DNA of 63,619 nt, counting the filler, from Basidioascus undulatus (lineage: Eukaryota): the NCBI GenBank assembly GCA_000826855.1. It is 5 parts of 5 records of this genome, joined end to end, with 100 filler letters (N's around TTAATTAATTAA, not from the genome) between each part and the next. Parts side by side here need not be neighbours in the genome. Positions count along the whole stretch, not along the records: positions 55,112 to 63,619 come from JTLS01001381.1; 4 more parts are not named here. The stretch is one strand, 5' to 3'. A program made the translations under genes and the position numbers. A model generated the notes under the pieces. That model did not search any database. It was not told the DNA's origin and was given only the letters and a program-made list of their open reading frames with translations. Below are positions 2,177 to 63,619 of this stretch, piece by piece (position 1 is the first letter of the stretch; every line of letters begins with the position of its first letter).

Positions 2177-3700
2177 TCATGGCAGGGCAAAAATTAGACA
2201 TACAACAAGACGAAAATGGGAATCCCAACAGAGACGAGCGCAGCTACGAGGTTCCTGCCTATGAGCTACCCCAACCCCGTCGTCGTCGTACGACGTGATC
2301 CCGCGACGAGAAAGGCCCAACCCGTGCGAAGCGCCCAGGAGACGAAGTCCGGCTGGCAAGTTTCCCATAAGAAGCAGTGCGGTTCCACTCCTCCAAGCCG
2401 GACGTGGGGGCGGAGTATCGGTGAGCTCCATTAGCACTGGGCTCGCGGTGATGTGGACGTCGGCGGTATTTGAGGGCATGTCGATTATGGGCTCGACAAG
2501 AGACCTCGCTATGGCTGCGACAAACGTCTTCGGATCGGGCAGCTCCGATGAGAGGGTCAGAAAGCGAAGTGCCGGACATCGAGAGAGAACGAGCACGACG
2601 CTGGCACGTCAAGCATGAGTCCACTCAGCGAGCCTGATGTGGAGGAAAAGAAACATTCAACTCAAGACCTGTTGACAGATGGCACACTAAAATCGGCGCT
2701 ACGGAGCACTGGGAATGAACAGCAACTGAGGTAGTCAAGAACGAGCCTGAGGTCCCTCCCGCTTACCAAGACAGATGTGGGCCAAGCGCGATAATTCGAA
2801 AGTGTCCGAGGTAGTAAACTTTACCTCTTCTTCTTCAGCGTATTTGCAGAAAACCTCTATGAGCTCAAGCAAGGCGAGCTTCTGGAGCATGGGGAACGCA
2901 GGGGCGGAGCTGAAGGCAGTGAGATGCGTGAGGGTAAGCAGCGGCGTGCCGAATAAGCGAGTGCGTGGTGAGCGGTCCGACTGTCTGGTCGAAGGACCAA
3001 CCAATATCAGTATGCTTAAGATGAGAGACGAACGAGACGACCTGCGGGACCGCGGTCGAGTGCAGGCCGCCGTCGCGGTGGCCCGAGTCGGCAACCATGA
3101 CACTGACTGATGCACAAGTCCCGCAAGCCGCCCGCAGGCCGCCGACCGTCAAGGCCAAGTTCGATGAAGTGGAATGCGAGTCCCTTGATGGATTTGAAGG
3201 ATGAGATCCGAACATGGTGGTACCGGAAGAGGTTCGGAAATCGCCTTTGGGACTTCCTCCCCTCGGTCAGCGTTAGCGCAGCCAGACGTCGTGGACACGC
3301 CGGTATCAGCACACCTTCCATGCCCTACACACCAGCAATATGGAATGACCCATGTTTCGTTGCTCGGCTCCAGCCAGCACATCGTTGTATCAGTCGGCCA
3401 GTGCGAAGCTGAAGATGCGCGCCCACAGCTCGTTCGGAATGCGCTCAGGAGCCATGTGTCTCCGGAGCTCATGAGAACTTGCGGGATAATGTAAATGAAC
3501 CGCTTTTCTATGGACTCAGTTGAGTTTGAAGAGAGTGGTGCGAGCGGGCAGAGCTCAAGGTTGACAAGTGCGGTTCGGTCAATCGGCGGACAGATCTCAT
3601 CCGCTCTTCCCCGCTCCAGACGTGTCCCGCCCATAGCAACTTGCGGATTCCGCACAAATGCGCTTCTACTTGATCACGTCGCGATGTAGGACAAATACAC
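2177..3700 (-). pseudogene. Possible degenerate F-box/RNI-like (LRR) gene remnant
   Basis: Protein-like fragments in several frames (LSRCPALRFLTLS, FPMLQKLALLEL, LRDLCISQC) resemble fungal LRR-type repeats; no continuous ORF or clean splice model; boundaries approximate. Confidence 0.3.
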
Positions 3701-4094: not shown

Positions 4095-7187
<3,093 letters not shown>

Positions 7188-8526: not shown

Positions 8527-8626
8527 NNNNNNNNNNNNNNNNNNNNNNNNNNNNNNNNNNNNNNNNNNNNTTAATTAATTAANNNNNNNNNNNNNNNNNN
8601 NNNNNNNNNNNNNNNNNNNNNNNNNN
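8527..8626. other. Assembly gap with TTAATTAATTAA linker
   Basis: 100-nt N run with a central six-frame stop linker; artificial. Confidence 0.98.
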
Positions 8627-10939: not shown

Positions 10940-12100
10940 TCGGCGAAAGTTGGTCGATTACGCGGTGATGGCAAAGGTGGCTACCGGCATGATCAATGGT
11001 ACGCATCTCAGTCTAAGTTGAAGGAGCACCAGTTGACTCTTTCTCAACGTTGTCGATATGGTGTTGAATGATGGGAACAGGCCCGTCTCATGGCCGGTGC
11101 GTCTCTCGTTCAAGAAAGCGTTGGAGGGGGTTCTTAGTTTCTTTACCTTCTGTAATGCCCAACCAGGTCGCAACCACATGTTACTTCGAGTATTCTCTCA
11201 TCACTGGCAAGCCTGAGTTCAAGTTTCCTGCCGTCTTCTTGGTTTGTGCTAGACTATCCTGTCTGGTGCTGCTTTTCGTGAAGTACTCTTAACGCTGTTG
11301 TTTTCTCTGTATGAAGGCATCTGACACGCCACGGCAGTGCTGTCCGCTCGAAAATACCCACGTGCGCACTCCGATCCCTTGTCGCTGTTTTGGCAATGCT
11401 GAAAGGTCAACTGACTGGAGAACAATGGTTTGCGAAGACACTCGGATGAAGGGTGTTACATCATTTACGGACGTCTCAGGTACTTGTGTTCAGCCGCTCA
11501 GAGCTGTCTAAGCGTACACTAATGCTCCAAGCTGTATGTGCCCATGCAGCACACAATTTTGCATTGCCACAACATGCGCGACCGCCCTCCTGGTGATCAG
11601 GGTCGTTGCCATGCTCGTCTTTCCTCACTACATTGAATAGAGAGAAGTACTGAATATTTTACACACAACTGGCATAAAAGGCTGGCTGTCGCAATTCCTC
11701 TTGGTGTCCTCACAGTCGGACAACTCGTCTGTACAACGTACGTGTCGTGTACCCAGAACATGCCTGCAGCACCTAACGAAGTCCTTCTCATCTTGCAGTG
11801 TGGTGCATCTGTAAGCTATGCCACAGACATTCAGGCGCATCCAGGAGCTCAATTGCTGATTCATACCAAGAACACCGCCCTGCTTTCCAGCACGAGCATC
11901 TACGGTACGTCTCTCAACCCTGCTGAGGAATGTGCCCTCTCTGACAGAAAGGATGGTCGAATATTGCAGCTCAATCACTTCCAGGTATGTGTTACAAGGT
12001 GGCCGAAAGAGTCTTTTTCGAAAGGTCCAGGGAATTCTGCAGTCGCTGCACCAGACCTGCTTCCCATTAAACAGATGAAAATTCACCTACTGTGCTAAAG
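10940..12100 (+). pseudogene. Basidiomycete multi-pass membrane protein (DUF6533-like), probably decayed
   Basis: Fragments TTCYFEYSLITGKPEFKFPAVFLVCARLSCL, CATALLVIRVVA and WHKRLAVAIPLGVLTVGQL recall this family; some splice sites look mutated; boundaries approximate. Confidence 0.4.
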
Positions 12101-16129: not shown

Positions 16130-17151
16130 TGTGGGGGAGATGAGCTGTGTGAGAATGTAACGACGAGGACGAGGCTCGCAATAGCGAGGATGGATGGTCG
16201 AAAGGAGAGCTGGAGGAGGCGAGAAGTCGGGCGAGCACCCTCGGGCGCAGTCGGGCCCGACGCGCTGGTTAGTCGCTGTTCGTCTTCCTTTCGGCCCCTG
16301 CGCCGCCATCCCCCCGGGACAGCCACACCTGGGCACCTTTGTCCGCCATCACAGACATATTCAACAAAGCTCTTCATCCTCCTCGCACACTCACCGCAAG
16401 CGTACAGCTCGCAATATAGTCGAATCCTCACCTATCAATCGAAAGCCGGTTATCAACATCTCAGACTCCGAGGAGGACGTCTTGAAGGTCGAGCCGGGCA
16501 TCATCAGGGCACGTCCCAGGCCCGTGAAACGCAACAACCCGTCCTCTGCACCGACTTTCGCTCCTATGGCGCTGCACTGCCCCTGGTCACACTGCAAACC
16601 TGGGCATGGGGGCTCTTCCTCCCCTACATGGCCAAGTGCGGTGGTGCACAGCTCAGTTGGGAGTTCGCCAAGCATGGCAGGAGGCATGCCGGGGGGGCAG
16701 AGCCACTCAGGAGAAAATTTACACAGGCAGAAGGCGTGTTTGGGGCCATGAAATGATGTAGTCTGGTGGGAATTGGGTGTGCATATACACACCGCTTGCC
16801 TTTCTTCTTTGCAACAAACACACACACATGCATCCCTCCAAAGCCATCCTCCATGTGGGCTCTCTGCGTGCAATCGCAGACCATGTTTTGTGAGAATAAT
16901 GTCTTCAGTGCTGCAGTCGCGAATCCAGGTTGAAGGAGGTGTGGGGGAACAAACCTCGGATTATCGGGATGCCGCGAGGCGAGGCTGGGGTGTGATGGGT
17001 TTGGGTAATGGGAGACGGTCGTGTACATGGGCGTGTGTCCCCGAGTGCTCCATATCCACTCAGAGTGTCCGAAAGCCGGTTAACCATCCATCTCACCCTC
17101 CTTCTGACCATTACCCACCCCCACAGCATCCATCTCCCCGCTCTCTTTCCA

Positions 17152-17251
17152 NNNNNNNNNNNNNNNNNNNNNNNNNNNNNNNNNNNNNNNNNNNNTTAAT
17201 TAATTAANNNNNNNNNNNNNNNNNNNNNNNNNNNNNNNNNNNNNNNNNNNN
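17152..17251. other. Assembly gap with TTAATTAATTAA linker
   Basis: 100-nt N run with central linker. Confidence 0.98.
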
Positions 17252-20536: not shown

Positions 20537-21724
20537 CTAAACCACGCGCCCCGGGTCCATTGCGCTCTCCTGGCCTACATCAACGCGGCCATGAAACGAG
20601 ATCGGAAGGGACTTGCCAGGCCCTACAGAAAACTCGTTCAGAGCCGAAGCGATTCTGATACCTCTCTTCAGCTGGCTGAGCCTCGGGTCATTGTCTTCTG
20701 AAAAGAGCTCGTCGGACGACACGACGCGCAGCTGGAAGCGCTCGACAGCAAAATCGAAGAAGCGCCGGTTCGTCCGCGCCATCTCCTCGGTCTCTTCCGC
20801 GAGCTCGAAGCGAACGGGGAGAGGAGGGACAGAACGCTGTACTGTGCGCTTGGCGATAAAGTAAACCGTTGTCGCGAGAGGTGTTGGAGCGCGCGACAAG
20901 CTGCAGACCGTACTGTCGAGTTTGTGCCTCCAGTCAGCACGAAGATGCGCTGCGCCGACGTCACCGAGGGAATATGACAGTTACCAGAGCAAGGAAGGAG
21001 GAAGCGTAGCCCGCCTTTTCAATAGTCAATATATAAGTTATGTGCAAGTAAACGAGCCGCTCGAGGCACTGTTGGCAGTGCGTGCACTCTTTCGGCCCGC
21101 CCCACGGGCAGAGGGCATGGATGCGAGCCCTTTCCTCGATTGCCTCCTTACGATGCGTCCTCGATTGCCTCCTTCGAGCGTCCTCGATCGCGAAATCCAT
21201 GAGCATGCTGCCGATGAGTTCGAGCACTTCCCGGACTGCAGCGAGACGGAGTAGCGAATGCTCCGATCGAGACTTGAGCGACACCGGCGCCTTGGGTGGG
21301 GCTGATACCGGCGCACTACCAGCGCCTTAGGAGGCGCAGAAGATGAGAAGCCTGTCTGCCTTCCGAGCCACGTCCAGAACGTCGTGCGGGCTGCGGGATG
21401 TTCGAGGTATCAGCGGGCATTCCGGTGATGGTGGGGGTAAGGAAAGCGCTCACTCTCCGCAGCCGGGGGCACAGCCGGGGGCACAGCCGGGGGCACAGCC
21501 GGGGGCACAGCGAGGGGCACAGTGACCGGCGCTTAGGGAGTGTGGTATTTATGAGAATAGCCGTATGCGAACTTGACAGGAATCCCAATGATCAAAGAGC
21601 CCAAACGCTGTCGATTCCCGAGGAGAGCAAGCAAGTCGAGTCCACCGGTGCAGGACGGCCAGGCGTTGGCGGCGATTGAGAGCGACATGGCGTCGACTGG
21701 CAGAGCGAGGACACTGACTGGTAT
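20537..21724 (-). pseudogene. Unnamed family X, copy 2
   Basis: (ATA)PVSVLALPVDAMSLSIAANAWP...LLRLAAVREVLELI...CPWGGPKECTHCQQC...RFELAEETEEMARTNRRFFDFAVERFQLRVV...LPISFHGRVDVG; start codon ATA where copy 3 has ATG, and in-frame TAA at 21533-21535. Confidence 0.8.
21460..21519. repeat. 12-bp minisatellite (CAGCCGGGGGCA) x5 inside family X copy 2
   Basis: Four perfect units plus one degenerate unit; encodes VPPA repeats on the minus strand. Confidence 0.95.
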
Positions 21725-22173
21725 GAGGGGCTGATGGATTATGGGAGGTGCTTCGAGCAATCGAGCTGGTAAGTAGGCAACGCGGCGGTGAATAGGACTG
21801 ATGATGGTATAAGGGCAAGGGGCGAAACAACAAGGGTGTTTGGGGAATGGGTGGACAGAGCGGAAGCAGACGTATGGAATGTGCGAGCTTTTCATACGCT
21901 CTATCGATGAAGGCTGTCCTGTGTCTTATATGAGGATTTGTGCAGATAGGCTGGTGTGTCGCCTCCGAATGTGGCTACTGAACACGATTACCGTTGTTAC
22001 AGACTTGAAGGCTGCCTTGTCGGGCCGGCCTTGCTGCGTTGGCCATCGCTGGACGAGCTGATGCAGCGGAATAGAGGCATCTGAGTAACTCATGATTGTT
22101 TTTTTTTTCTTTTGATAAAAGCTTTATACTAGGTCCCCAAACCACTTTGGTTTATTTTTAAAAAAAACTGGGA

Positions 22174-25228: not shown

Positions 25229-26116
25229 TGTTGTTTCTGGGAGTAGGGAGTGTGTGTGGGTGTGGGTGCTAGCTGGTGGGGTGTGCTGGGAATCAAGAGG
25301 GAAGACGCATCCGGCGGGGGCATATGAGCGTTGATGAGCCAGCAGTGTTCAAGTGTGAATTCTAGCCAGTGGCCAGGCGCCACGATTCCGAACGGGAACG
25401 GTTTACATGACGCAAGTTCAGTAAGCGAGCGCAAAACGCGCGTGGAGGGAGAGAAGACCGCAGGTGGAGGGAGTGTTTCTGCACTGCCTCTTCGCCTTTA
25501 TTTTTTTTCACAACCCTCGCTGTGACAACCTTTTCGAGCATTGGGAATCGGAAGTCTTATGTGTAACCGAAGTACTGTTTATTGATGCAGTACAAGCTCG
25601 AACCACAGTCAGTGACCGCCGGCACGTTGGCGACTTTCGTCCAACTTTCGACGCGATGTCCCCTGTCGATATGTTTCCATCTCACTCTTCCCATCAACTA
25701 GTGACTAGGTCTCGGTCAAGCCGATATAGGTATCTGTAGTCCATGTTCGCATTCGATGTCCCTCGATATTCCCTCCCCCTGTGCGTGGTCTTCAAGCAGC
25801 TCGGCGTGCCCGCCAACTCCACCTCCAACGGGTGAGAGACATGCTTTCGGCAGCTGGTTTCGCGCTGCGAAACTGATCTCAACCAAACAATCGACTTGTG
25901 TACTATGAAAGACCCATGAACTAGAGAGGCAACCTTCCAGAGGGCTAAATAGTATATTGAAAGCAGGTACATTCCAGACTTTTTGCTTCCGCTCTGCACA
26001 AGACCGCAACAACGCCCGTTGCTTCGCTCGGCTTCTTGCGCTCTGACCATCACCACCCCTATTCACAACCGCGCGTTGTATACACGCCCTCGCTCACCCA
26101 TAATGATTAGCCCATC

Positions 26117-27155
26117 ATGCCAGTCACTGCACTCGCGCTGCCCGTCGACGCCATGTCACTCTCGATCGCAGCCAACGCCTGGCCGGCCTCCGCGGGCGGA
26201 CTCGACTTACTTGCTCTGCTCGGAAATCGCCCTCGACCAGAGTCTCTGATAATTGGGACTCCGGTCAAGTTCGCATATGAGTACTCGCATGAATACCACA
26301 CTCCTAAAGCGCCAATCATTGTGCCCACGGTGGCGGAGGGTGAGCGCTTTCCTTCCCACACCTTCACCGATCCGCCCGCTGAGAGGTTTCATTACTTCCT
26401 GGGCTCGGATCTTCGGATTGGCGGGCCTCTCGGGCTCAACTCCTCCCAAGTGGCTCGTCTCGCCGAAGCCTCGACCAATGCATTCGCTACTCCGTCTCGC
26501 TGCGGTCGAGGAAATGCTCGATCTCATCGGCAGCACGCTCATCCAGTCTGCGATCCAGGATGCGGGAAGGAGGAGATGGAGATGGTTATCATCCATAGCC
26601 ACTGCCCGTGGGGCGAGGCGAAAGACTGGATGCATTGCCAGTCCTGCATAGGCCAGCTCTCTCTTGCGTACACGTACCACAAACGAAAAGGCCGGTTACG
26701 TTTCTGCTTTCTGCTTCCAATGTGTCCCGTGGTTTTCATTGCACAGCAACTCCATGTAGACTGGAGGTACAATCTCGACAGTACGGTTTGCAGCTCGTCG
26801 CGCGCTGCAAAACCGATCTCCGCCACACAGACTACTTGATCGCTAAGCGTTCCCTCCCGTCCTCAGTTTCGCTTCTGCCGGACCGCTTCGAGCTCGCCGT
26901 GGAGACCGAGAAGATGGTGCGGACGAACGCGCGTCTCTTCAGCTCGCACTCGAGCGCTTCCAGCTGCGTGTCGTGCACCGAGGTCCTTCCGGAAGACGAC
27001 TACCAGTGTCTTGGCATTACCGAGAAGGGTATGATGCTCGCTTCAACTCTGAAGGACTATTCGTGCTAGCTGCGCAGCTTGGAAAGGCCCTTCCGATCTC
27101 GTTTCATGGGCGCGTTGATGTGGGCCTGGCGAGCGTGCTGGACCGCGTGGTTTAG
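26117..27155 (+). pseudogene. Unnamed family X, copy 3
   Basis: MPVTALALPVDAMSLSIAANAWP...; colinear with copy 2 through LPISFHGRVDVG but needs several frame changes. Confidence 0.8.
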
Positions 27156-35372: not shown

Positions 35373-36040
35373 GTCGATTCATACTGCTCGGTCGAATGTC
35401 AGCGCGCGGATTGGCCAAAGCAACAAGGTAGGATGCAAGCTCCGCGTGGACGCTCGCGACGACCCCGAGCTCGGGCCGCTCATGCACGTCTCAGACGCAC
35501 TGCGCAGATGGTCAACCAAGCACACAGATAATAGTTTGCGATGTGTTTCGCACTGGAGCTCCGCGAAAACCCCGCCAACTGTCTCGAGTATGCGCTCCTA
35601 CTCAACCTTCGGCCCGTCAGCGGCGCCGCTTCGAGCCGTCCTCGTACAAGGTCATTCCTCGGGAGGCACTGGAGATGGCGTTGGAAGAGGTGGGGCGTCG
35701 GGGTGCCGAGGACAGTCTTCAATTCTCTCGCGAGAAGAGTACACCTTCAAACAGATCGGGATACAGCGCATGCGCTGACCGCTGCCCTCACGCAGGAGCG
35801 GCGGCGCACAACTTCATGGGCACGGCGCTGCTTCTTCTCAAGGCCGGGAAGGTTGTGAAGACCATCATACTGTGGCCTCGGGAGGAAACGTGGAGGTTTC
35901 CCAGCCTGCGTCCGGGGGCGGCGGGGCAGTGGCGGGAAGAGCTGAAGGTCAGCCTGCGGCGCGACCGAGGCACGTCGCAGGGCCGTTTTATACTCTCATC
36001 GATGCAGCTGTGCCGTGCTTCGAAGATTGGATTGTTTTAA
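35373..36040 (+). pseudogene. MYND zinc-finger protein copy A, C-terminal part (split by inversion)
   Basis: SYCSVECQRADWP, FALELRENPANCLEYALLLNLRPVSG, RRFEPSSYKVIPRE and GQWREELKVSLR are homologous to copy C; frameshifted; lacks the first two Cys pairs. Confidence 0.8.
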
Positions 36041-41010: not shown

Positions 41011-41823
41011 TCAAGGATGAGAGTATAAACCGTCCTGCAGCTGGCCGCAGTCGCGCAACCTGACCTTCAGCTCTTCCCACCACTGCCCCGCCTCCCTCAG
41101 AACCATACTTTCGAACACCTTCCGAGTCCCCTCACCCGGAGTTGGGAGGACCACAGGCATAAAGATCTCCCCCACCGAGAGGGCGAGCAACACCTAACCT
41201 GCGAAAGCCGTGCGCTGCCGTTGACACGCAGAAGGATTCGCTTTCCCTCCGCATCTCCGTTAAATCGGACTCGTACTCCTCTTCTGGGCTGCTCATTAGA
41301 AGGCCCTTATTCAGGGCCTGAACCAGTCTCTCCTCCGCCTCGTCGCGAGGGACGACCGTGTACGCGGACGGCTCGAAGCGGCGTGGGTCTCCGCTGACTG
41401 GCTGGAGCTCGATGTGGAGCGCGTTCTGGGCGCAGTTGCCTGGGTTAGCGTGGAGATCCAGCCCGAAGTAGAGCGCGAGGAGGAAGGCGGCTGCGCGGTT
41501 GGCTGACCACTTGTGGACTGCCTCGAACACCGGCGCGAACTGGGGTTCAGCTTGAGCCCGGGCGAGCTCTTATGCATCCCGCCTTGTGCCGCGGCCAGTC
41601 TGCGCCCTGGCACTCGACAGAGCAGTATGAGACTCGGGGTAGGATGTGCAGCTCTGAAGGTATAAGTGAACAGGTCTGTCGCGCTCGGCGGAGTGAGGAG
41701 GGAACACGCATTCTGCCTGCATTGCCCGCACACAGTGAACTTCGGGCCTCCTTCAGGCGGCCGCCTCAGACACTTGTGACAGGGGAGGCGAGGGGTGATA
41801 CCAGAGCGTCAGCTGGAAGACAT
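41011..41823 (-). pseudogene. MYND zinc-finger protein copy C (full length, disrupted)
   Basis: MSSS*RSGITPRLPCHKCLRRPPEGGPKFTVCGQCRQ / SYCSVECQGADWPRHKAGC / FGLDLHANPGNCAQNALHIELQPVSGDPRRFEPSAY / GQWWEELKVRLRD; TGA at codon 5 and a mutated first splice donor. Confidence 0.85.
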
Positions 41824-46396: not shown

Positions 46397-46496
46397 NNNN
46401 NNNNNNNNNNNNNNNNNNNNNNNNNNNNNNNNNNNNNNNNTTAATTAATTAANNNNNNNNNNNNNNNNNNNNNNNNNNNNNNNNNNNNNNNNNNNN
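46397..46496. other. Assembly gap with TTAATTAATTAA linker
   Basis: 100-nt N run with central linker. Confidence 0.98.
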
Positions 46497-55011: not shown

Positions 55012-55111
55012 NNNNNNNNNNNNNNNNNNNNNNNNNNNNNNNNNNNNNNNNNNNNTTAATTAATTAANNNNNNNNNNNNNNNNNNNNNNNNNNNNNNNNN
55101 NNNNNNNNNNN
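55012..55111. other. Assembly gap with TTAATTAATTAA linker
   Basis: 100-nt N run with central linker. Confidence 0.98.
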
Positions 55112-55766: not shown

Positions 55767-56199
55767 GGAGTGGGCGGTGGGGCGCTGGTGGGGCTGTGAG
55801 GGCGACTATGAGCGTGATTTCCATGAATGCGTTGATGAGAATGAGAACGGAGAAGCAGAGCTTGTTACGCGTTGGCTGATTTTTGGCAGGGTTGATAGAC
55901 GATTTGGAGTGTGAAATGCTACGCGCTTGCAGTCCACTGAGGAAAGCCACAGAGCAGGTCCGACTGCGACGGCGAAGAGCCTCAAGCCCTGAAACGCCTT
56001 CTTCCGAACGATCTAGCGTCTCAACCCCAACAGCAGTGCGGATCGGGTTCTGTCGAAATGTATCAGTCCGGCGTTGTCTTGGTTGACCGCATGTTGCAGC
56101 GCTGGCCCGGCTGACGCGAGCCAGACGGTGCAACTACTCGCACACGAGTCACAAGAGGAATATCATCAATTCGAATAGCCGAATAGCTGCTTTCAGGTA

Positions 56200-56970
56200 T
56201 CATACACGCCATGAAACGTTCGTCAGTAACTCGTAACAGCCACGCCCACCCGCCCTCTCGAAGCCCCGCTCAGAGTCCTGTTGCTCTTCCCATTCCATAA
56301 AAGTCGCCAGTCAGAGAAAACACCTCAGTGAGGAATCCCTGGAGAGCACGCACCGCCTTGCTGAGCAGCTGCGAGTGGACGTTCGGGATGACCCCGCCCT
56401 CGTGTATCTGGCAGTCTGCGTCACATCAGCTTCCGCAGATGAGTCATTATGCCCGATACGAAAAAGTGGAGTGGGACAGACGCTTGAGGAGTTACGAGAG
56501 CTCTGGGAGCGGGAAGGGTAAGTTGGAAAGAGGTGGGGAGACGCAAGATGACCAGGCGCACCGTCGTCGTTCCGCACAGCGAGGAGGATGTGCTACGGGA
56601 TGATGCGTTTCTTCTTGTTGTCCCCTGTCCCAAAATATCGCCATAAGGTAAGTAAGATACTGCTGTTGAGTAAGCTGAAGTGAGAAAGAGACCCATCTCG
56701 CCGCGTTCCCCGCGAGCTCGAGCACCTCCGCCGTGAGGAACTCGAGCACGGCAGAGTTGTAGACGGGCGCGCCCATGCGGATCATGCCGGCATAGCGGCC
56801 CTTGGTCACCCAATTGCCACATTTTAGTCCTCGTAATGCTTTGGGGGAGGGGGGCGGCGTACGCGCTTGAGATGTTTCGCGATGCGGGCGACGGGGAAGG
56901 TCACGCCCGCGCGCTTGGACTGCGTGAAGCGCGTCTTGTCCTTGGGGTGCTTGGACTTGCCGGGGACCAT
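56200..56970 (-). pseudogene. Divergent intron-containing histone H2A pseudogene
   Basis: [25 protein letters not shown]...[25 protein letters not shown] / [25 protein letters not shown] / IHEGGVIPNVHSQLL; stops at 56593-56595 and 56492-56494; one damaged splice donor; 3' end approximate. Confidence 0.88.
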
Positions 56971-57699
56971 GCTGTGGGGAATGGGATGTGGGGGATTTGG
57001 GTAGGGGCGTGGGGGAGGGGAAGACCAGGGGTGGGAAGCGGAGGCAAGATGAGGGTAGGAAGGCAAGCGAGGGCGCGAGGCCGGCGGAACGGCGGTGACG
57101 AGTCCGCCCGGTGTAGGGGAAAGGGAGCAGTTGGTGAGTCGAAGGGGCGCCAATTTCCGTGAATGGGTGACTTTGAACGACGATTACTACCCATTCAGGA
57201 ACTACAGTGAGTGTATTCGGTCTTGCGATACATGCAGGACATGCACCTTGCGGGAGTTATGCAAGCGCTATCTTTTTAGGGAATAAAAAGAACTACCGCC
57301 TCGGATCAAACTGTCTTTGTCCTTCAGAACCACAAGTTGCCTGGTTGTGAGCTTCAATGAAGACCGGGCGGGCATGCAGTGCTGAACGGGCAAACGTTCC
57401 CGTTCTTGCTCTGTCTGACGACAGAAAAAAAAAAACCCTTTCAAACTCCTTCTTCTTTTGTTTGGGAAACACGGATCTATCGTCCCTCAAGCGGCCCGAA
57501 ATGGGCTCCGGCGCACGAAGGAAATTCGGAACGCTTAACGGCTCGTTGCCTACTCTGTTGTGGGTAGGAATGAAAAGGTGTTGCTCCGCATTTAACTTCA
57601 TTTTTATTTATAGAAGCTAGACGTAAGCTTAATTTAGTCCTTATAGAACTTATTGGAGAGCATCGAGCGGCCTCTCCTCCCTCTAAGCTGCCTGAACAC

Positions 57700-57995
57700 T
57701 CGGGACACGGCTCGCTTGCCATGAGGATGTGAGTACTTCGTGAGGTGTACGAGAGGCCTCTGTCAATGGCTGCCTGGGAGACCATGACCGCGTCCTCGTA
57801 GTTGTCGCCGTAGTTGGCGAGACACATGGCGAGGTCCTCCCCCGGCGAGCACTGCACCAGACCTATCTCTGGGTCGTCAGGCATATCCTTCGTCAGCCTC
57901 TCGCCCATCGTCGTGTAGGTGAGCGGCTTGGACACATGGACTGGAGCTATGAGGGAGGAAGCCACCTGGTGAGGGGCACACACCGCCTGGGGACC
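57700..57995 (-). pseudogene. Fragment of a divergent DNA-directed RNA polymerase second-largest (beta/RPB2-like) subunit
   Basis: GPQAV...SKPLTYTT...PGEDLAMCLANYGDNYEDAVMVSQAAIDRGL follows the order of RPB2 motifs MGKQA...QKPLxTT...PAGxNxxVAI...GYNQEDSxIxNQSSIDRGL; intronless and isolated. Confidence 0.7.
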
Positions 57996-60900
57996 CTCAC
58001 CCTACATCTCCTTTCGTCAGCGGGACAATTGATTATGACCACAAAGCCTTTCGTACACTGAGCATAATTCCACGGAGACGCTGACCAGCGGGTGAATGCT
58101 GGTCATGGTCGACGGTTCTTCAAAACTTTCCCGCTTCGCTTGCTGTTGCCTGAAAGGCCACATTGTATCTTGAAGTGAGTAGATCGAAAATATTCATCCA
58201 ACCCTGCGTTTTGGCATGTCAATGAAGGGCACAGCAGGTCAATGTCTGTGTAAGCCGCGCTAGTCCGTCTGTCTTCGCACCACCTCATGCCCTAGGCTCT
58301 CCACGAGCCTCTAGGTATGCCGTTGGATCTGGCTCGTTAGACTGAGACCTCACCCTGCAGACAGACTTCAATACGATGACTGCCTCAGAAACATGGCTCC
58401 TTTTCTGCAGATGTCGTCATCCAGCACGCACATAACTCATACTCGACGATCACCTTTGCCAGAAACGCGTACACGTATCACTCTGCTTTGCGGACGCTGA
58501 AACATGCCTGTAGGTAGCGCGTTCGTGCCTACAGCGAGAGGACGAAAGGAGGCACCCTCGATTACATGTATATGTTGTGCCCTGCCGCCCTCTCAGAGAT
58601 CACATCTGCTGATCTCTCATAACATGCAGTACACGGTGGGAGGACGCGGTGGCTACACGTACGGAGCACGTTTGGATCAGATAAGTGGTTCACAATTCAC
58701 ACACTAACCTGAATGTACACTCGTATGGCAGTACCCGCTGCACATTCTTCCGTTGCAATGCGATAGCAGCAGTTGCCCTGCGCTGCGAGAGAGCTGCACA
58801 CCGCACAGTGGTCTGTTGAATCGCGCTCAGTATGGTGCACGCAGTGTGCCCATGCCGTATGTGTGCCTGTTGCTCGCTTGATGCATGTTTTCCGTTTACT
58901 TACCTCAGTAGGGAAAGGACCCCAGCGGCTTAAGTAGTTTAAGAGACGGACTTGCAGAGAGTTTCTGTCTGTCAGGTCGGGCGGTCCCAAGCGGTACGCG
59001 GTTTGATACTCCGCACATCATGGGTCTTATTAGAGATAGATGATCCCACTCCAATGGACGTGCTGGCAGGAGACCCCTTGTGCTGCATACTCTGTTGCCC
59101 AGTCGCTGCGTCCCCATTGACTCGTATCAAGCATGGGCATTCTTTGATCAACGGTGTGTTTGGAGCCTAAGGATGGACTGAAGAACTCTCTTAATCCCCC
59201 CTTGATAGTCCGGGCGTAACGTCCAGGCGTCTTTTCAGCCGACAAATGCACTCTTGCCTTCAAGCAGCGAGCCGTACTACCTTGCTTTCTGTCCAACCAA
59301 TGTATCAAGCAGAGTTGTCTGACCAATTTCAAAGAAAAGTTCTTTAAGATATTGGATAGCAAACACTCTGGTCTGGTTGGAGAAGAGAACAGAGCCCAAG
59401 AAGAAGGCACCCCCCGCAGCGCAGTCCTGATCACCCATCCTTTTCCGTAATGAGATAGCGCTCACTTTGGAGCAAACCCGTTTGTGAGAGGGTGTATCAT
59501 GAAATATTGCATTTTCAGTCAAGTCGTTCGTCAAGTGCAATTGTCCCAGGTTGCATAGAGAAGAGTCCTGTGCGCTGCCGCAGTGCCTGTTCTCCCCCAG
59601 ACGTACTTTCGCGCTGGAGCATTTCTTCTTCTTCCGTGTGGAACCCGCACCACCGCCACCAACCATCAATTCTTGACCCTCTCATGGTTTCTCTGCAGGC
59701 CTGTGCGCAAACCGCGCTCCAAATTAAAGTCGTCTTCGGTGAAGGTCTGAATGGGCTGTTACCCTGTCGCACGATGTGCATCGCTCGGATCTCAGCCTGA
59801 CTACTGAACAAAGACATGGGGGCTTGGATACCTTGAGAGTAGGATCTGCCTTTCTTAAGTGCCAAACAAGTTGAAATGTCTCATGGTGCACGGCAAAACC
59901 CACACGCTGCGGCGGCGTGTCTTCTCTCCGGACGTACTTCCGCGCTCAAGCTTTCCGCCCTTTGCCGTGTGGAGCATCCCACCCAAGGCTCTACCAACGC
60001 GACGTCCTTTGTGACCACAAACCGCTTGATAACGTTCACGAGTACTACGAGCTGCCCAGAGACGACGTGCCAGCAAGCCCACGGGCGAGTATTCAAATCG
60101 TCGCTGCTCTACCAGGACAAGCCGAACTTGTCTGATAAGTCTCTACTCAAAGGGCTGTAAGCTCTAGTGCCGAATGCCTCTAAGAAACTTTTCGAGCCCC
60201 TCGCCTACAAAAAATTTCGCTTCGAACGTCTTTGAGCAGACGGTCGACGACTGCGGACCTCGCGCCCTGTGCACACTGCACCACCACCCACGAGCCGCAG
60301 CTGACTGGCGGCCCACATGGCGGACCCGATGATTGACGGTGACCATTGCGAATGCCCAAATTACGAAGAGCGGAAGAACCCAGGGCGATATAAGGTCGGT
60401 TCCTCCGCTAAAGTGACTAACGAGCACCGCAGTGGAGCGGATGGTGCACTCGCCCGCGCTCGGGCTCACTGCAGCTGCCAACAAGGGCGCTTTCGTGGGC
60501 CAAAGGCGGCCAGCCGATCATCATTTTCAAAGCGCCTGTGTTAGAGCATTTGAAGTAATTTGCACTTATGCGGATAATAGTCAGCCTCCCTGTTCTTGAC
60601 ATCCCCGTCAATCAACAACAAATGAGCCAGATAGCAGGTGGCGACAGAGTGGGGGCTGCGAAATCGACTTCTGCCGAAAGCTATTGACATTTGAGAGTGA
60701 CGTTGGAGTCGGTTCAAGTGTTGGATTCACAGGCAATATGTTCACGAAGTTCACGTCTGAACATTCATCCCCTCGAGCAAGGCTGAGGAGTGGAGCAAGC
60801 ACGCCGCCATTGAGTCGCTGCGAGCGACTCTTTCTGCTTACCGGACAATGAACAGCGCCCCTGTCAGGCGGCCACGAAGTGCTGCCGGATGGATTGGAGC

Positions 60901-61962
60901 ATTGGATACAAATATCTGCATACCCAAACGGATCAGCTGAGCTCCACGAAGACTCAATCGGCGGGTAGCTGCCGGCTGTCCATCACTTCGAGATCCGAGA
61001 GACGGAGGTAACTGAACTTGCAAAACGCGATCAGTCAGGCAATCAATGACAAGCCGGCAAGCCGAGATATTTGCCAGACCACTTGTATTCAGTGTCTGCG
61101 TGTGTGGTGCAGACGCTCCGTAAGCGCACCGCCGCAACTCTCGATGAGGGTGTGATGTGGGTGAGGGGTCGGGGGAGGGCAAGGCAAAGGTCTTCGACTA
61201 CAAGGTGTGTCAGGCTGGAGGAAATGGCAAGAGTGTAAAGTCTAAACTACGTGTATGGGTGTATAAGTATGTGACTAAGAAAACGAAGCAAGAGAGGGGT
61301 TAAATGTAAAAGATGGATGCAGGAATGTGTGTGGAGTGGAGAAGCAAGCTGGAGCAAACGCACGTCTTTTGGGTCGGGATGGATGGGTGAGAGTGTGGAT
61401 AGGGAAATAAATCATCGTGATGCGCGGGGTTATTTATATGGTGGTGCGAGTGGTAGAGTAGAGGGGAGGGAGGAGTGTGAGGGGGCGATGTGCGTTGCGC
61501 CGAGAATAAGGGGTGGAATGCTATGCGACGATAAGTGACCAATAAAGGATGAGAAATGGGTAACATCAAAGGGGGTGGAATCGCCGGCGGATATGAATGG
61601 TATACCGAAAGAATTGGGAATCCAGTAAATGGGTGGCGAGATGCGAAGAGGGGTAATCAGTGGACAGGGCCGAAGGGCAAGAAGCGAAAGAGGGCAAGCC
61701 TGAACCGGGAGGGAGGATGAGCGCATGAGAGACGCGCGACGAGTGGAGATGAGCCGAGAAGAGAGAGAGAAGAGAGTGTGGTAGAGTTACATAGTTGTGC
61801 GATGAGTGCGAGGGTCGTTGGAAAAGCGTTCGTGGATGTAGATGAGTGTGAGAGTGTGTGGAAAGACGAAGGAGAAAAGGGAAGGATGCGAAATGTGGTA
61901 AAGACGAATGCATGGCGAGCGTGACGGGAAGGGTGCGGGAGAGCGGATGGAGGGAAGGTGCT

Positions 61963-63619
61963 TTAGCGGGAAACGCCGTTGACTCCCCAGGTGGACGCGC
62001 GGAGGGGCGACATGCGCGGGGAGGCGGCGCCGGACGCGACGGCGGTCTTGCCGTACACGGTCGAGGCGCGGTTGTTCTCCTTGCCGGGGGTGAGGGGCAT
62101 GTCGTCCTCGGACCAGGACGCGCTCGACGCGCACGGGCTGAAGAGCGCGTCAGACTCGTCCATGCTCGTGTCGGCCGACGACGCGCGCGAGTGCGTGGGC
62201 GATGGCGGCGCCTGCGCCTGCTGCTTCTTGCGGAGGGCGAAGATGTCGAAGGTGGGGATGGGGGCGTAGAAGTAGAAGCGGCGACCGGCGAGGTACCATT
62301 CGCGGACGACGGTGGACGCGCGGGAGTAGTAAGCGGGAGCGTATCTGAAGGAAGGGCGAACTGGTCAGCATGGGGTCATGGTAATGAAGCGATAAAGCGC
62401 AGAAGAGGTACTTGGCGATGATGATTTCGGATAGTTGTTCGAGATGCTCGCCGAGGAAGATGTCGAGCAGCTCAGCAACGTACACGGCAGCCTCAGACTC
62501 GTCGCGTATCTGCAGGTGAAGTGAAGGGAACAAGGATTCAGTCGAAGCAATGGAGACGGGAGACAGAACGAGGGGCGCACCCTTCGCGGCCTGCCGCAAA
62601 TGGTGCGACCAAGGAGGAGCGCGCCCGCGGCGAGGCACGAGGGCGGGATGTCGACAAACTCGCGGAGGTAAAGCCCAATCTCCATGACGCAGCGGGCGAT
62701 GTGTTGTGTGCGCATGTCGTCGAACCCGAGCGCGATCGTGAAGAGACGAAGCCACGACTGCGCAAGCGGGGAAACATCAGCATGAAGCGCAGGGAAGACG
62801 CCGGCAGTTCCAATAGCGACCACGTACCTCAGCGGTCGGATGTCCCAATACCCACCCCAGCGTCGACAGCACGTGCGCCTCCATCTGCAGGAAGGCCGAC
62901 TCGTCGTAAATGCCGCAGCACGAGTCGGTGAGCTCGCGGAGGCAGGGCACGGCGTGCTTTGCGTCCTCGAACTTTGCCGCGATCCAGAGTGCCGCGCAGC
63001 CGACGAGCTGGTAGTGCTTCTTGAGCACGACGCGCTTCGAGATGTACCGGTCGATGATGTTGACCGTGAGGTAGAGCGTCTCGGGGCGCAGGCGCGCCTG
63101 CTGGTGGACCTCGACAAGGAAGTCGACCAAGTACGTGCGCATCGACCAGTCCAGCTCCGGCTGCGAATCAATTAGTGCCGCGTCGCCGAGCGTCTGTGCC
63201 TGAAGGAGCGAAGGGGCAAGGGACAATCAGTGTCCGCTTCCGAATACAGGGCCACAGCCGCTCAGCCTCGCCTCGCCTCGCCTCGCACTTCTCAGAAAGA
63301 AAGATTCGGACTCACCTCCATCGCATGCATGTAGTACCGAATGTCCTCGAGGTACTCGGACTCAAAGAGCGGGCGACCTTGGCGCTGGTACGCGAGGCGC
63401 TGGGCCATGCGCGCGCGCTGGATCTCGGCTGCGAGCGCGTGCTGCTGCTCGCGGCGGCGCCTGGAAGAGGACGCGCCGCCCGACGCGACGGAGGAGGACG
63501 AGGAGGACGCGGAGCCCGGGCTGGCGCGCTGCTTGCCGACGCCGGCGGAGGGGGACGCGCGCTTCTTGTTGTAGACGCTGGTGCGCTCGTGGTCGATCCG
63601 GCGGGGCGCGGCTGAGCGG
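61963..63619 (-). CDS. G1/S-type cyclin, Cln1-like (5'-partial)
   Basis: EYLEDIRYYMHAME / IDSQPELDWSMRTYLVDFLVEVHQQARLRPETLYLTVNIIDRYISKRVVLKKHYQLVGCAALWIAAKFEDAK (cyclin box), GHPTAESWLR, and a Ser/Pro-rich tail; TAA at 61963-61965. Confidence 0.93.

Follow-up and report, generated by a model that had tools for sequence, protein, structure and literature searches.

A beta-like RNA polymerase gene slice in a Basidioascus undulatus chromosome: a probable relic of a small self-transcribing DNA element

Introduction

The nuclear genomes of yeasts carry inserts of DNA from extrachromosomal elements, termed NUPAVs, for which an origin as filler in break repair is described (PMC4431711). The nuclear inserts of virus-like elements (VLEs) recorded from filamentous fungi comprise clusters for toxins, chitinases and immunity "but not housekeeping genes", and no free-living element of this type has ever been found in a filamentous ascomycete (PMC13348850). 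Cytoplasmic linear plasmids were stated in 2023 to be known only from Saccharomycetales (PMC10328495), and their K2ORF6p (YKP6), treated together with K2ORF7p, is called a unique and essential single beta-beta-prime fusion (PMC6211774). Endogenous Nucleocytoviricota fragments that include RPB2, the "fundsalpha/betaviruses", are reported from other fungal phyla in an article that does not contain the term Ascomycota (PMC7017919), and a further source holds that no double-stranded DNA virus of fungi is known (PMC10640383). Here we examine a locus of Basidioascus undulatus (assembly GCA_000826855.1) at which a fragment resembling the second-largest (beta, RPB2) subunit of multisubunit RNA polymerases lies between host genes. 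All positions refer to the analyzed stretch of 63,619 nucleotides, hereafter the window, unless another contig is named.

We consider it probable, at roughly 0.8, that this fragment is the relic of a beta-like polymerase gene from a small self-transcribing DNA element, lodged in a host chromosome. The sections below set out the fragment itself, its homology, the gene content of a relative and the host surroundings, together with the competing explanations on which each bears.

Results and discussion

A truncated and undecayed slice of a beta-like gene

The fragment occupies a minus-strand frame of 174 codons, open from stop to stop (58001..57477), which starts with GEGPQAVCAP and continues through SKPLTYTT and PGEDL to NYEDAVMVSQAAIDRGL. 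A preliminary description of this locus had listed the motifs GPQAV, SKPLTYTT, PGEDL, NYEDAV and SQAAIDRGL, and all five are present in that order in the translated frame. Its interval, 57700-57995, was essentially correct, homology to the protein family described below covering residues 4-107 of the frame, or 57992..57681. The fragment and its edges comprise the following features.

57681..58001, minus strand: the relic, 107 codons of a gene for a beta-like (second-largest) subunit of RNA polymerase; from the hybrid-binding region, Rpb2 domain 6
57477..57680, minus strand: read-through tail of 67 codons plus stop; no family homology, GC content at third codon positions (GC3) 0.31; not part of the relic
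58002..58022, minus strand: 5' edge of the relic; the frame is closed by a TAG stop at 58004-58002, with CTGAC at 58020-58016 before the TAG

The relic retains the Q-A, KPL..T, PGEDL, NYED and DRG motifs. A six-frame search of the window with the family profile found neither the N-terminal half of the protein nor the WWK motif, the GDK..HGQKG motif or domain 7; the last two are needed for a working subunit and are present in full-length relatives. The conserved DRPPR expected before QAV does not occur in any frame upstream of the relic, nor does the profile find family homology there in any frame. Across the six frames of the whole 63.6-kb window, no other part of the 791-position profile matched at E ≤ 1, the next hit (E 1.2) being an unrelated Cys-rich sequence. 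The window thus carries a piece of a beta-type gene, not a complete gene, and the fragment is an orphan, as had been proposed.

The composition of the slice is that of coding DNA. Its 107 codons, free of stops and frameshifts, have a GC content of 0.61 and a GC3 of 0.75, and on a fine scale they form an island of 57-65% GC between flanks of 27-52%. The 67 codons of the tail, in frame with the relic, have a GC3 of 0.31 and include a stretch of 27-35% GC at 57560-57660; host coding stretches have a GC3 of 0.66-0.93. Both edges of homology are sharp, and at the 3' edge the coding signature ceases exactly where homology ceases. The earlier characterization of the fragment as GC-rich, coding-like and intronless is borne out by these values.

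In a family alignment of 54 rows, 11 positions within the span are either invariant or conserved to 90% or more, and all of them are intact in the relic (Q5, P10, P20, P26, T30, P53, G54, N63, E69, D70 and G82). Because these 11 positions are kept and no stop or frameshift is present, the relic has the look of an undecayed gene slice, probably from a gene that still worked until shortly before, or at, insertion. The claim that it is a "fossil of a foreign RNAP-encoding replicon" needs dividing: a foreign relic is supported, and "fossil" may overstate the age of a piece that shows no decay. An AlphaFold model of the relic from the 54-row alignment is mostly coil, with a predicted local distance difference test score (pLDDT) of 62.8, and Foldseek returned a single meaningless row against the PDB (E 9.5), so that structure modeling provides no evidence either way.

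The same features can be read as an exon of a living host transcript, exapted from the element. By eye, CTGAC and TAG at the 5' edge resemble an intron branch point and acceptor. Together with GTGTAC at 58058 and an ATG at 58106, they would define an in-frame candidate intron of 57 nt, joining a 16-codon first exon (58106-58059) to the 174-codon frame as a possible open reading frame (ORF) of 190 codons. The host-like GC3 and the 11 conserved residues would also suit such an exon. However, the donor site is poor, GTGTAC lacking the usual G at +5, the 67-codon tail is not coding-like, and no role is known for 104 residues of the hybrid-binding region on their own, a slice that is modeled as disordered out of context. 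We regard an exapted exon as improbable.

Homology to the beta/RPB2 superfamily

Taken alone, the fragment matches the Pfam family RNA_pol_Rpb2_6 weakly (E 0.13; 11.8 bits against a cut-off of 23.4). Its relatives provide a much stronger link. A phmmer search with the first 110 residues against 1,835,955,588 representative proteins returned 22 proteins at E ≤ 1e-3 and two at E ≤ 1e-10, the best at 8.8e-13 (64.5 bits, 39% identity), followed by 3.8e-12 and 1.6e-10. Rpb2_6 was recognized in all 19 of the matches scanned with Pfam (weakly in two, at E 0.005 and 0.0065), with Rpb2_7 in nine of them as well; the remaining three of the 22 are short fragmentary ORFs of 78-112 amino acids from the same region. 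Against a profile of 19 relatives, built without the window's own row, the fragment scores 95.0 bits (E 2.6e-28) over positions 396-499 of 791. Every one of 20 alignment rows contains Rpb2_6 (best 1.2e-18), and half contain Rpb2_7 (10/20).

The family profile in turn matches protein chains of solved structure throughout the superfamily: archaeal RpoB (1.2e-35), Pol II RPB2 (~5e-31), Pol III (1.7e-29), plant Pol IV/V (5e-28), bacterial beta (6e-26), Pol I (4e-23) and vaccinia rpo132 (1.1e-20). In these profile-to-structure alignments the motifs of the fragment align to PRNTYQSAMGKQA, QKPLVTT, YNQEDS and DRGFF of human RPB2, and the family's QAv, skPLvsT, nYED and adrGlF fall on conserved motifs of archaeal RpoB and human RPB2. 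The order of motifs that marks beta subunits, PRN..Q(A/S).GKQA, (Q)KPL(V)T, GYN.ED and (I/V)(D/E)RG, is found in the relic as PQAV, SKPLTYT, NYED and IDRGL, the PR part being missing, upstream of the truncation point. We accordingly place the fragment, on sequence comparison, in the beta/RPB2 superfamily, by a strong link through its relatives and a weak direct one. The identity with a second-largest polymerase subunit given in the preliminary description holds in this form.

Motif order is common to all beta/RPB2 proteins, so that a host pseudogene, decayed from the second-largest subunit of Pol I, II or III, has to be weighed, along with chance resemblance. Such a pseudogene would be expected to be most similar to the cellular subunits of fungi. 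A phmmer search of the ORF against all solved-structure sequences, a library that includes yeast, Schizosaccharomyces pombe and human Pol I/II/III subunits and vaccinia rpo132, gave no match at E ≤ 1. Because no solved RPB2, RPA135, RPC2 or rpo132 chain, cellular, viral or other, is matched at that level, against 95 bits to the element family, the fragment is judged not to be a host RPB2 pseudogene, in agreement with the earlier exclusion of RPB2, RPA2 and RPC2. Chance resemblance is excluded by an E-value of 8.8e-13 among 1.84 billion proteins, and the two explanations together have a negligible probability. A cellular RNA-dependent RNA polymerase was also considered as the source and rejected, the motifs being specifically beta-type.

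A family of shortened beta-like proteins on small contigs

Proteins of the family measure ~780-866 amino acids, far shorter than cellular RPB2; the full-length members among the matches of the fragment have 734-864, and the fragment aligns with them near residues 370-540. Among 20 rows, Rpb2 domain 3 was recognized in one (E 0.004) and domains 1, 2, 4 and 5 in none. Searches of a 5.8-billion-cluster collection listed 22 family rows with the profile and 21 with a single protein. Named sources are hypothetical proteins from assemblies of Aspergillus hancockii (contig of 11.9 kb), Aspergillus insuetus (30.2 kb) and Hirsutella minnesotensis (25.8 kb). The family was absent from IMG/VR in scans with the family alignment, P0033 and P0060, and the ESM Atlas, queried with P0007, returned generic RPB2 clusters only. 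All rows of the beta-like family lie on contigs of 2-36 kb, and those of a linked capping-enzyme family (45 rows) on contigs of up to 39.5 kb, compared with contigs of up to 557 kb for bacterial rpoB rows in the same tables. This ceiling suggests replicons of ~20-40 kb.

Gene content could be read in one relative, L001, a metagenome contig found by a scan with P0033, of which 19.6 of 32.3 kb are readable. It has 31% GC and 16 tightly packed, ATG-started ORFs on both strands, with no room for introns. The genes that bear on transcription are these.

L001 7115-9631: beta-like protein, 838 amino acids
L001 16299-18266: beta-prime-like protein, 655 amino acids; Rpb1 domain 2 by Pfam (7e-13), S. 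pombe Rpb1 in the PDB (4e-11)
L001 9674-11914, minus strand: capping enzyme fused to a TFIIS zinc ribbon, 746 amino acids; member of the 44-member family A2

The beta-like and beta-prime-like genes are separate, 6.7 kb apart, and L001 further encodes a NADAR-domain protein and an RNase H. A foreign replicon encoding its own RNA polymerase, which the preliminary description had postulated, is visible in this relative, with genes for both large subunits and for capping. Comparison of 15 L001 ORFs with PHROGs gave NADAR-like, RNase H and faint beta-subunit matches only, and the remaining ORFs received no name from Pfam or PHROGs.

Proteins of family A2 combine an N-terminal zinc ribbon of TFIIS/Rpo30 type, with an acidic QRRAADEP loop (27 of 44 members by Pfam), with a KPDGER guanylyltransferase motif and mRNA_cap_C (13 of 44) and a C-terminal GxGxG methyltransferase. 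An AlphaFold model of the 746-residue protein (pLDDT 82.6) can be aligned from one end to the other with its top PDB match, the capping enzyme D1 of vaccinia (2e-20), and is nearest to the capping enzymes of pithovirus, marseillevirus and African swine fever virus (up to 1.8e-25). The fold match to nudivirus LEF-4 is 9e-14, and the baculovirus and nudivirus LEF-4 proteins stand far behind the giant-virus enzymes. On this modeled fold, the protein is predicted to be a capping enzyme of the giant-virus type with three functions, triphosphatase, guanylyltransferase and methyltransferase. By phmmer, neither it nor a 606-residue L001 protein has a useful PDB match, the capping-family profile finds only the zinc ribbon in the PDB, and the 606-residue ORF has no usable match in the ESM Atlas. 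A capping enzyme fused to a ribbon of the transcript-cleavage type has, to our knowledge, not been described.

L001 also contains 14 copies of a palindrome, CAAC-N3-5-GTTG or CGAC-N3-5-GTCG, for which 0.37 would be expected. All except one (13/14) lie in short spacers upstream of ORF starts, several of them between divergent gene pairs (for example at 287-297, 3078-3090, 7069-7080, 11937-11977 and 16270-16280 of the contig), and the palindrome reads like a candidate element-specific promoter. A private polymerase, a capping enzyme and such a promoter would together form the kit of a replicon transcribed outside the nucleus.

Host surroundings and integration

The relic lies between two host genes on a single contig (55112 to at least 63619), JTLS01001381.1 in the assembly. 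The features of the contig and its left limit are as follows.

55012..55111, no strand: artificial joint between contigs, N44-TTAATTAATTAA-N44; no linkage to the relic is shown for the DNA on its left
56290..57010, minus strand: host histone H2A gene with short exons; limits approximate, by eye
58343..59523, no strand: two-copy repeat beside the relic; ~2x surrounding depth, ~1.2 kb
62368..63226, minus strand: host cyclin gene; Pfam Cyclin_N 2.5e-36, Cyclin_C 3.8e-07

One exon of the H2A gene (56693-56812) matches solved H2A chains at E 4e-11, and its other exon pieces were recognized by eye. Read in at least five short pieces, this neighbor is consistent with the intron-dense host genes noted previously. 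The window is eukaryotic nuclear DNA, with a Sin3a C-terminal domain, a SAM synthetase and the cyclin in addition to H2A. It consists of five separate contigs (8.5, 8.5, 29, 8.5 and at least 8.5 kb), joined by four N44-TTAATTAATTAA-N44 spacers (8527-8626, 17152-17251, 46397-46496 and 55012-55111), so gene neighborhood across the spacers is meaningless.

Two DNA sequencing runs from two studies, X1 and X2, hold 0.89 of the sampled words of the stretch; one of them may be the source of the window assembly and so not independent of it. In these two runs, unitigs 56000-57795 or 57009-57860 lead from the H2A flank into the relic, and unitig 57906-58372 leads from the relic into the other flank. The depth of the junction unitigs equals that of neighboring single-copy DNA, 15.7-21.5 in X1 and ~48 in X2. 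Each homology edge of an insert with host genes on both sides is thus crossed in both runs. The link between the fragment and its flanks, proposed earlier as confirmation of integration, is accordingly given by unitigs at both boundaries and is missing over 45-110 nt in the middle.

That middle stretch leaves an opening for an assembly artefact, in which reads of a free element or a contaminant would have been misjoined to nuclear contigs. The stretch without a matching unitig is 57861-57905 in X1 and 57796-57905 in X2, and because none crosses there, the continuity of the middle of the relic is given by the window assembly alone. The assembly is moreover a draft of short contigs, and one 33-nt unitig within the relic has a depth of 443 in X1. 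Against an artefact, both ends of the relic are in unitigs with host flanks, in two runs and at single-copy depth, with the proviso that one run is possibly the window's own source. We consider a misjoin very improbable.

Three observations on the uncrossed stretch and its border deserve separate mention. No unitig matches 57796-57905 at 95% or more in either run, and the site is polymorphic, multi-copy or mis-assembled. The X1 unitig that enters the relic has four differences at 57814-57829, just before its end. The 33-nt unitig of depth 443 (57906-57938; three 31-mers, coding ..HVSKPLTYTTM..) stands among X1 neighbors of 15.7-21.5, and the same positions in X2 are inside an ordinary 48x unitig. 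Something at about 20 times the nuclear copy number in X1 therefore shares exactly the 57906-57938 stretch. That this sequenced isolate of the host still carries a high-copy relative of the donor element is unlikely on present data; if it does hold a live copy, the system becomes experimentally testable.

The surroundings also bear on how much was inserted. The relic could be the last remnant of a larger, perhaps whole-element, insertion of which the rest has been deleted, a variant of the relic reading. The gap of ~4.3 kb between the H2A and cyclin genes (57260-61500) has no Pfam-recognizable gene and is long for a compact genome; only two of 80 contig pieces of at least 60 amino acids have a Pfam match, both of them in the cyclin gene; and the two-copy repeat begins 340 nt from the relic. 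Yet a search at E ≤ 10 detects no other element protein in this gap and no further part of the beta-like gene, and in the window as a whole the other 15 L001 proteins have no match below E 0.025 and the capping-family profile has none. The sharp homology edges, with the coding signature ending exactly at the 3' one, also argue against a larger insertion, and the surviving piece shows no point-mutation decay, so that the rest cannot have faded by mutation. We regard this variant as somewhat unlikely. No tRNA genes were found on the relic contig, and direct or inverted repeats flanking the relic are limited to chance-sized matches of at most 16 nt.

Comparison with known systems

Like the NUPAVs, the locus presents a truncated gene piece of an extrachromosomal self-transcribing element between host genes, without a promoter or start codon. 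The two differ in composition, a recent yeast NUPAV keeping the 75% A/T of its element (PMC4431711) and the relic having a host-like GC3 of 0.75. Unlike the known VLE inserts of filamentous fungi, the relic is a piece of a polymerase, that is, housekeeping, gene, and the donor family is not a classical VLE.

The beta part of K2ORF6p comprises residues 1-693 with conserved regions kept and spacers trimmed (PMC6211774), and the present family is likewise a shortened beta-type module. Yeast VLEs and L001 are both AT-rich, compact and non-nuclear-type, with a D1-like capping enzyme. Classical VLEs are linear, with terminal inverted repeats and a protein-primed DNA polymerase; no polymerase B was seen among the 16 ORFs in the readable part of L001. 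The two are set apart in that the yeast VLE polymerase is a fusion of ~970 amino acids, whereas the beta-like and beta-prime-like genes of L001 are separate. None of the fragment's 22 matches exceeds 864 amino acids, and the full-length members end with Rpb2_7.

With the fundsalpha/betaviruses the locus shares an RPB2-type gene relic in a fungal chromosome, and the capping enzyme of the relatives is nearest to giant-virus enzymes. Giant-virus RPB2 is full-size, however, with domains 1-7, in contrast to family proteins of ~800 amino acids on contigs below 40 kb, and no giant-virus core gene was recognized in L001 or the window. The baculovirus and nudivirus polymerase (LEF-8, LEF-9, LEF-4) likewise combines a small beta-like subunit of similar length with a capping subunit, LEF-8 having ~870 amino acids. 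LEF-8 has no match in any of 20 family rows even at E ≤ 1, and the LEF-4 Pfam match is weak, in 4 of 44 capping-family members (best 7.7e-4); a methyltransferase is part of the family's capping enzyme, which is much closer to giant-virus enzymes than to LEF-4. A mitochondrial plasmid was considered as donor and rejected, the capping enzyme and the multisubunit-type polymerase both arguing against it; mitochondrial plasmids use single-subunit polymerases.

Origin of the relic and nature of the donors

In the parent element, the beta-like subunit and the separate beta-prime-like subunit would form a two-barrel RNA polymerase of the multisubunit type, joined by the TFIIS-ribbon capping enzyme, and the element's own genes would be transcribed from the palindromic upstream signal and capped. 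The donor of the relic would be a GC-rich member of a not-yet-sampled lineage of such elements, of ~20-40 kb, represented in filamentous-fungus assemblies. A gene piece of ~320 bp, 107 of ~800 codons, would have been inserted between the H2A and cyclin genes, and capture as filler DNA in double-strand-break repair, as in yeast NUPAVs, is the most likely route, one that we favor by a modest degree. Lacking its own start codon, a promoter of the element and a complete catalytic unit, the relic is taken to be non-functional. As it spans just part of the hybrid-binding region, including the NYED loop, it would be dead, and unable to act as a polymerase.

Several observations weigh against this origin or leave it less direct than could be wished. 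Over its span, the relic shares just 29-40% identity with each of the 40 family members compared. A tree computed from 39 rows and 104 columns gives it a long branch, of 1.33 changes per site, within a basal comb that is unresolved; it belongs neither to a 23-row clade (support 98/95; Hirsutella and L001-type) nor to a 10-row clade (100/99; Aspergillus). That tree omits P0047-P0064, found later, P0013, P0017, P0022 and P0042, which were too short, and four bacterial beta rows that could not be aligned. None of the sampled elements is thus the donor of the relic. Its GC3 is host-like, against 31-34% GC in those relatives whose DNA was read, and would also agree with a long stay in the host as an expressed gene. 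A GC-rich donor would plausibly explain the GC3 without such a stay; the GARP/FYMINK ratio ranges from 0.57 to 1.98 in the family, the relic being at the GC-rich end with 1.76 and the A. hancockii protein having 1.58. To the same side of the balance belong the uncrossed middle of the relic, the acceptor-like signal at its 5' edge and a frame that stays open for 174 codons, beyond the homology. The fungal host of the elements is indicated by assembly labels and the relic alone. Finally, no DNA polymerase, helicase, capsid or termini were seen among the 16 ORFs of L001 in its readable 19.6 of 32.3 kb, nor did Pfam and PHROGs recognize a capsid, packaging ATPase, D5 or PolB among them. The donors may be viruses or capsid-less plasmids; both readings stand.

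A nuclear insert of extrachromosomal-element DNA is a known kind of locus; what is new is a polymerase gene as the insert, and the donor family. No paper describing the family or naming its accessions was found in the literature searched, which comprised sources other than subscription journals and supplements. Tentatively, and with a little less than an even chance, the relic may be the trace left in the chromosome by a lineage, so far undescribed, of autonomous DNA elements of fungi, ~25-40 kb in size and either virus or capsid-less. Such a lineage would combine a split, shortened beta/beta-prime polymerase with a giant-virus-type capping enzyme bearing a TFIIS ribbon and a palindromic promoter; living in filamentous fungi, it would be related to the helpers of yeast killer plasmids and to giant viruses. 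The relic itself would be inert, and its value is that of a pointer to dozens of contigs of 20-40 kb, some from Aspergillus and Hirsutella assemblies, which appear to carry a complete private transcription kit of new architecture. If these are real fungal elements, they widen the host range and diversity of self-transcribing DNA elements, they add an intermediate without the fusion to the debate on how the killer-plasmid polymerase arose, and the relic is direct evidence that such an element met a host nucleus.

Other repeats in the window

The two-copy repeat beside the relic has no Pfam domain, and its loose ends at 58343, 58544 and 59523 are identical in both runs. On another contig of the window, a long imperfect inverted repeat joins 21160-21735 to 26106-26581 and also 20554-20953 to 26741-27144; its arms are at most 221 nt long, with 72-85% complementarity and ~4.4-6.5 kb between them, possibly marking an inverted gene duplication or a transposon. 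A second inverted pair, 35624-35958 and 41054-41383, has matching segments of 41-48 nt at 88%, ~5 kb apart.

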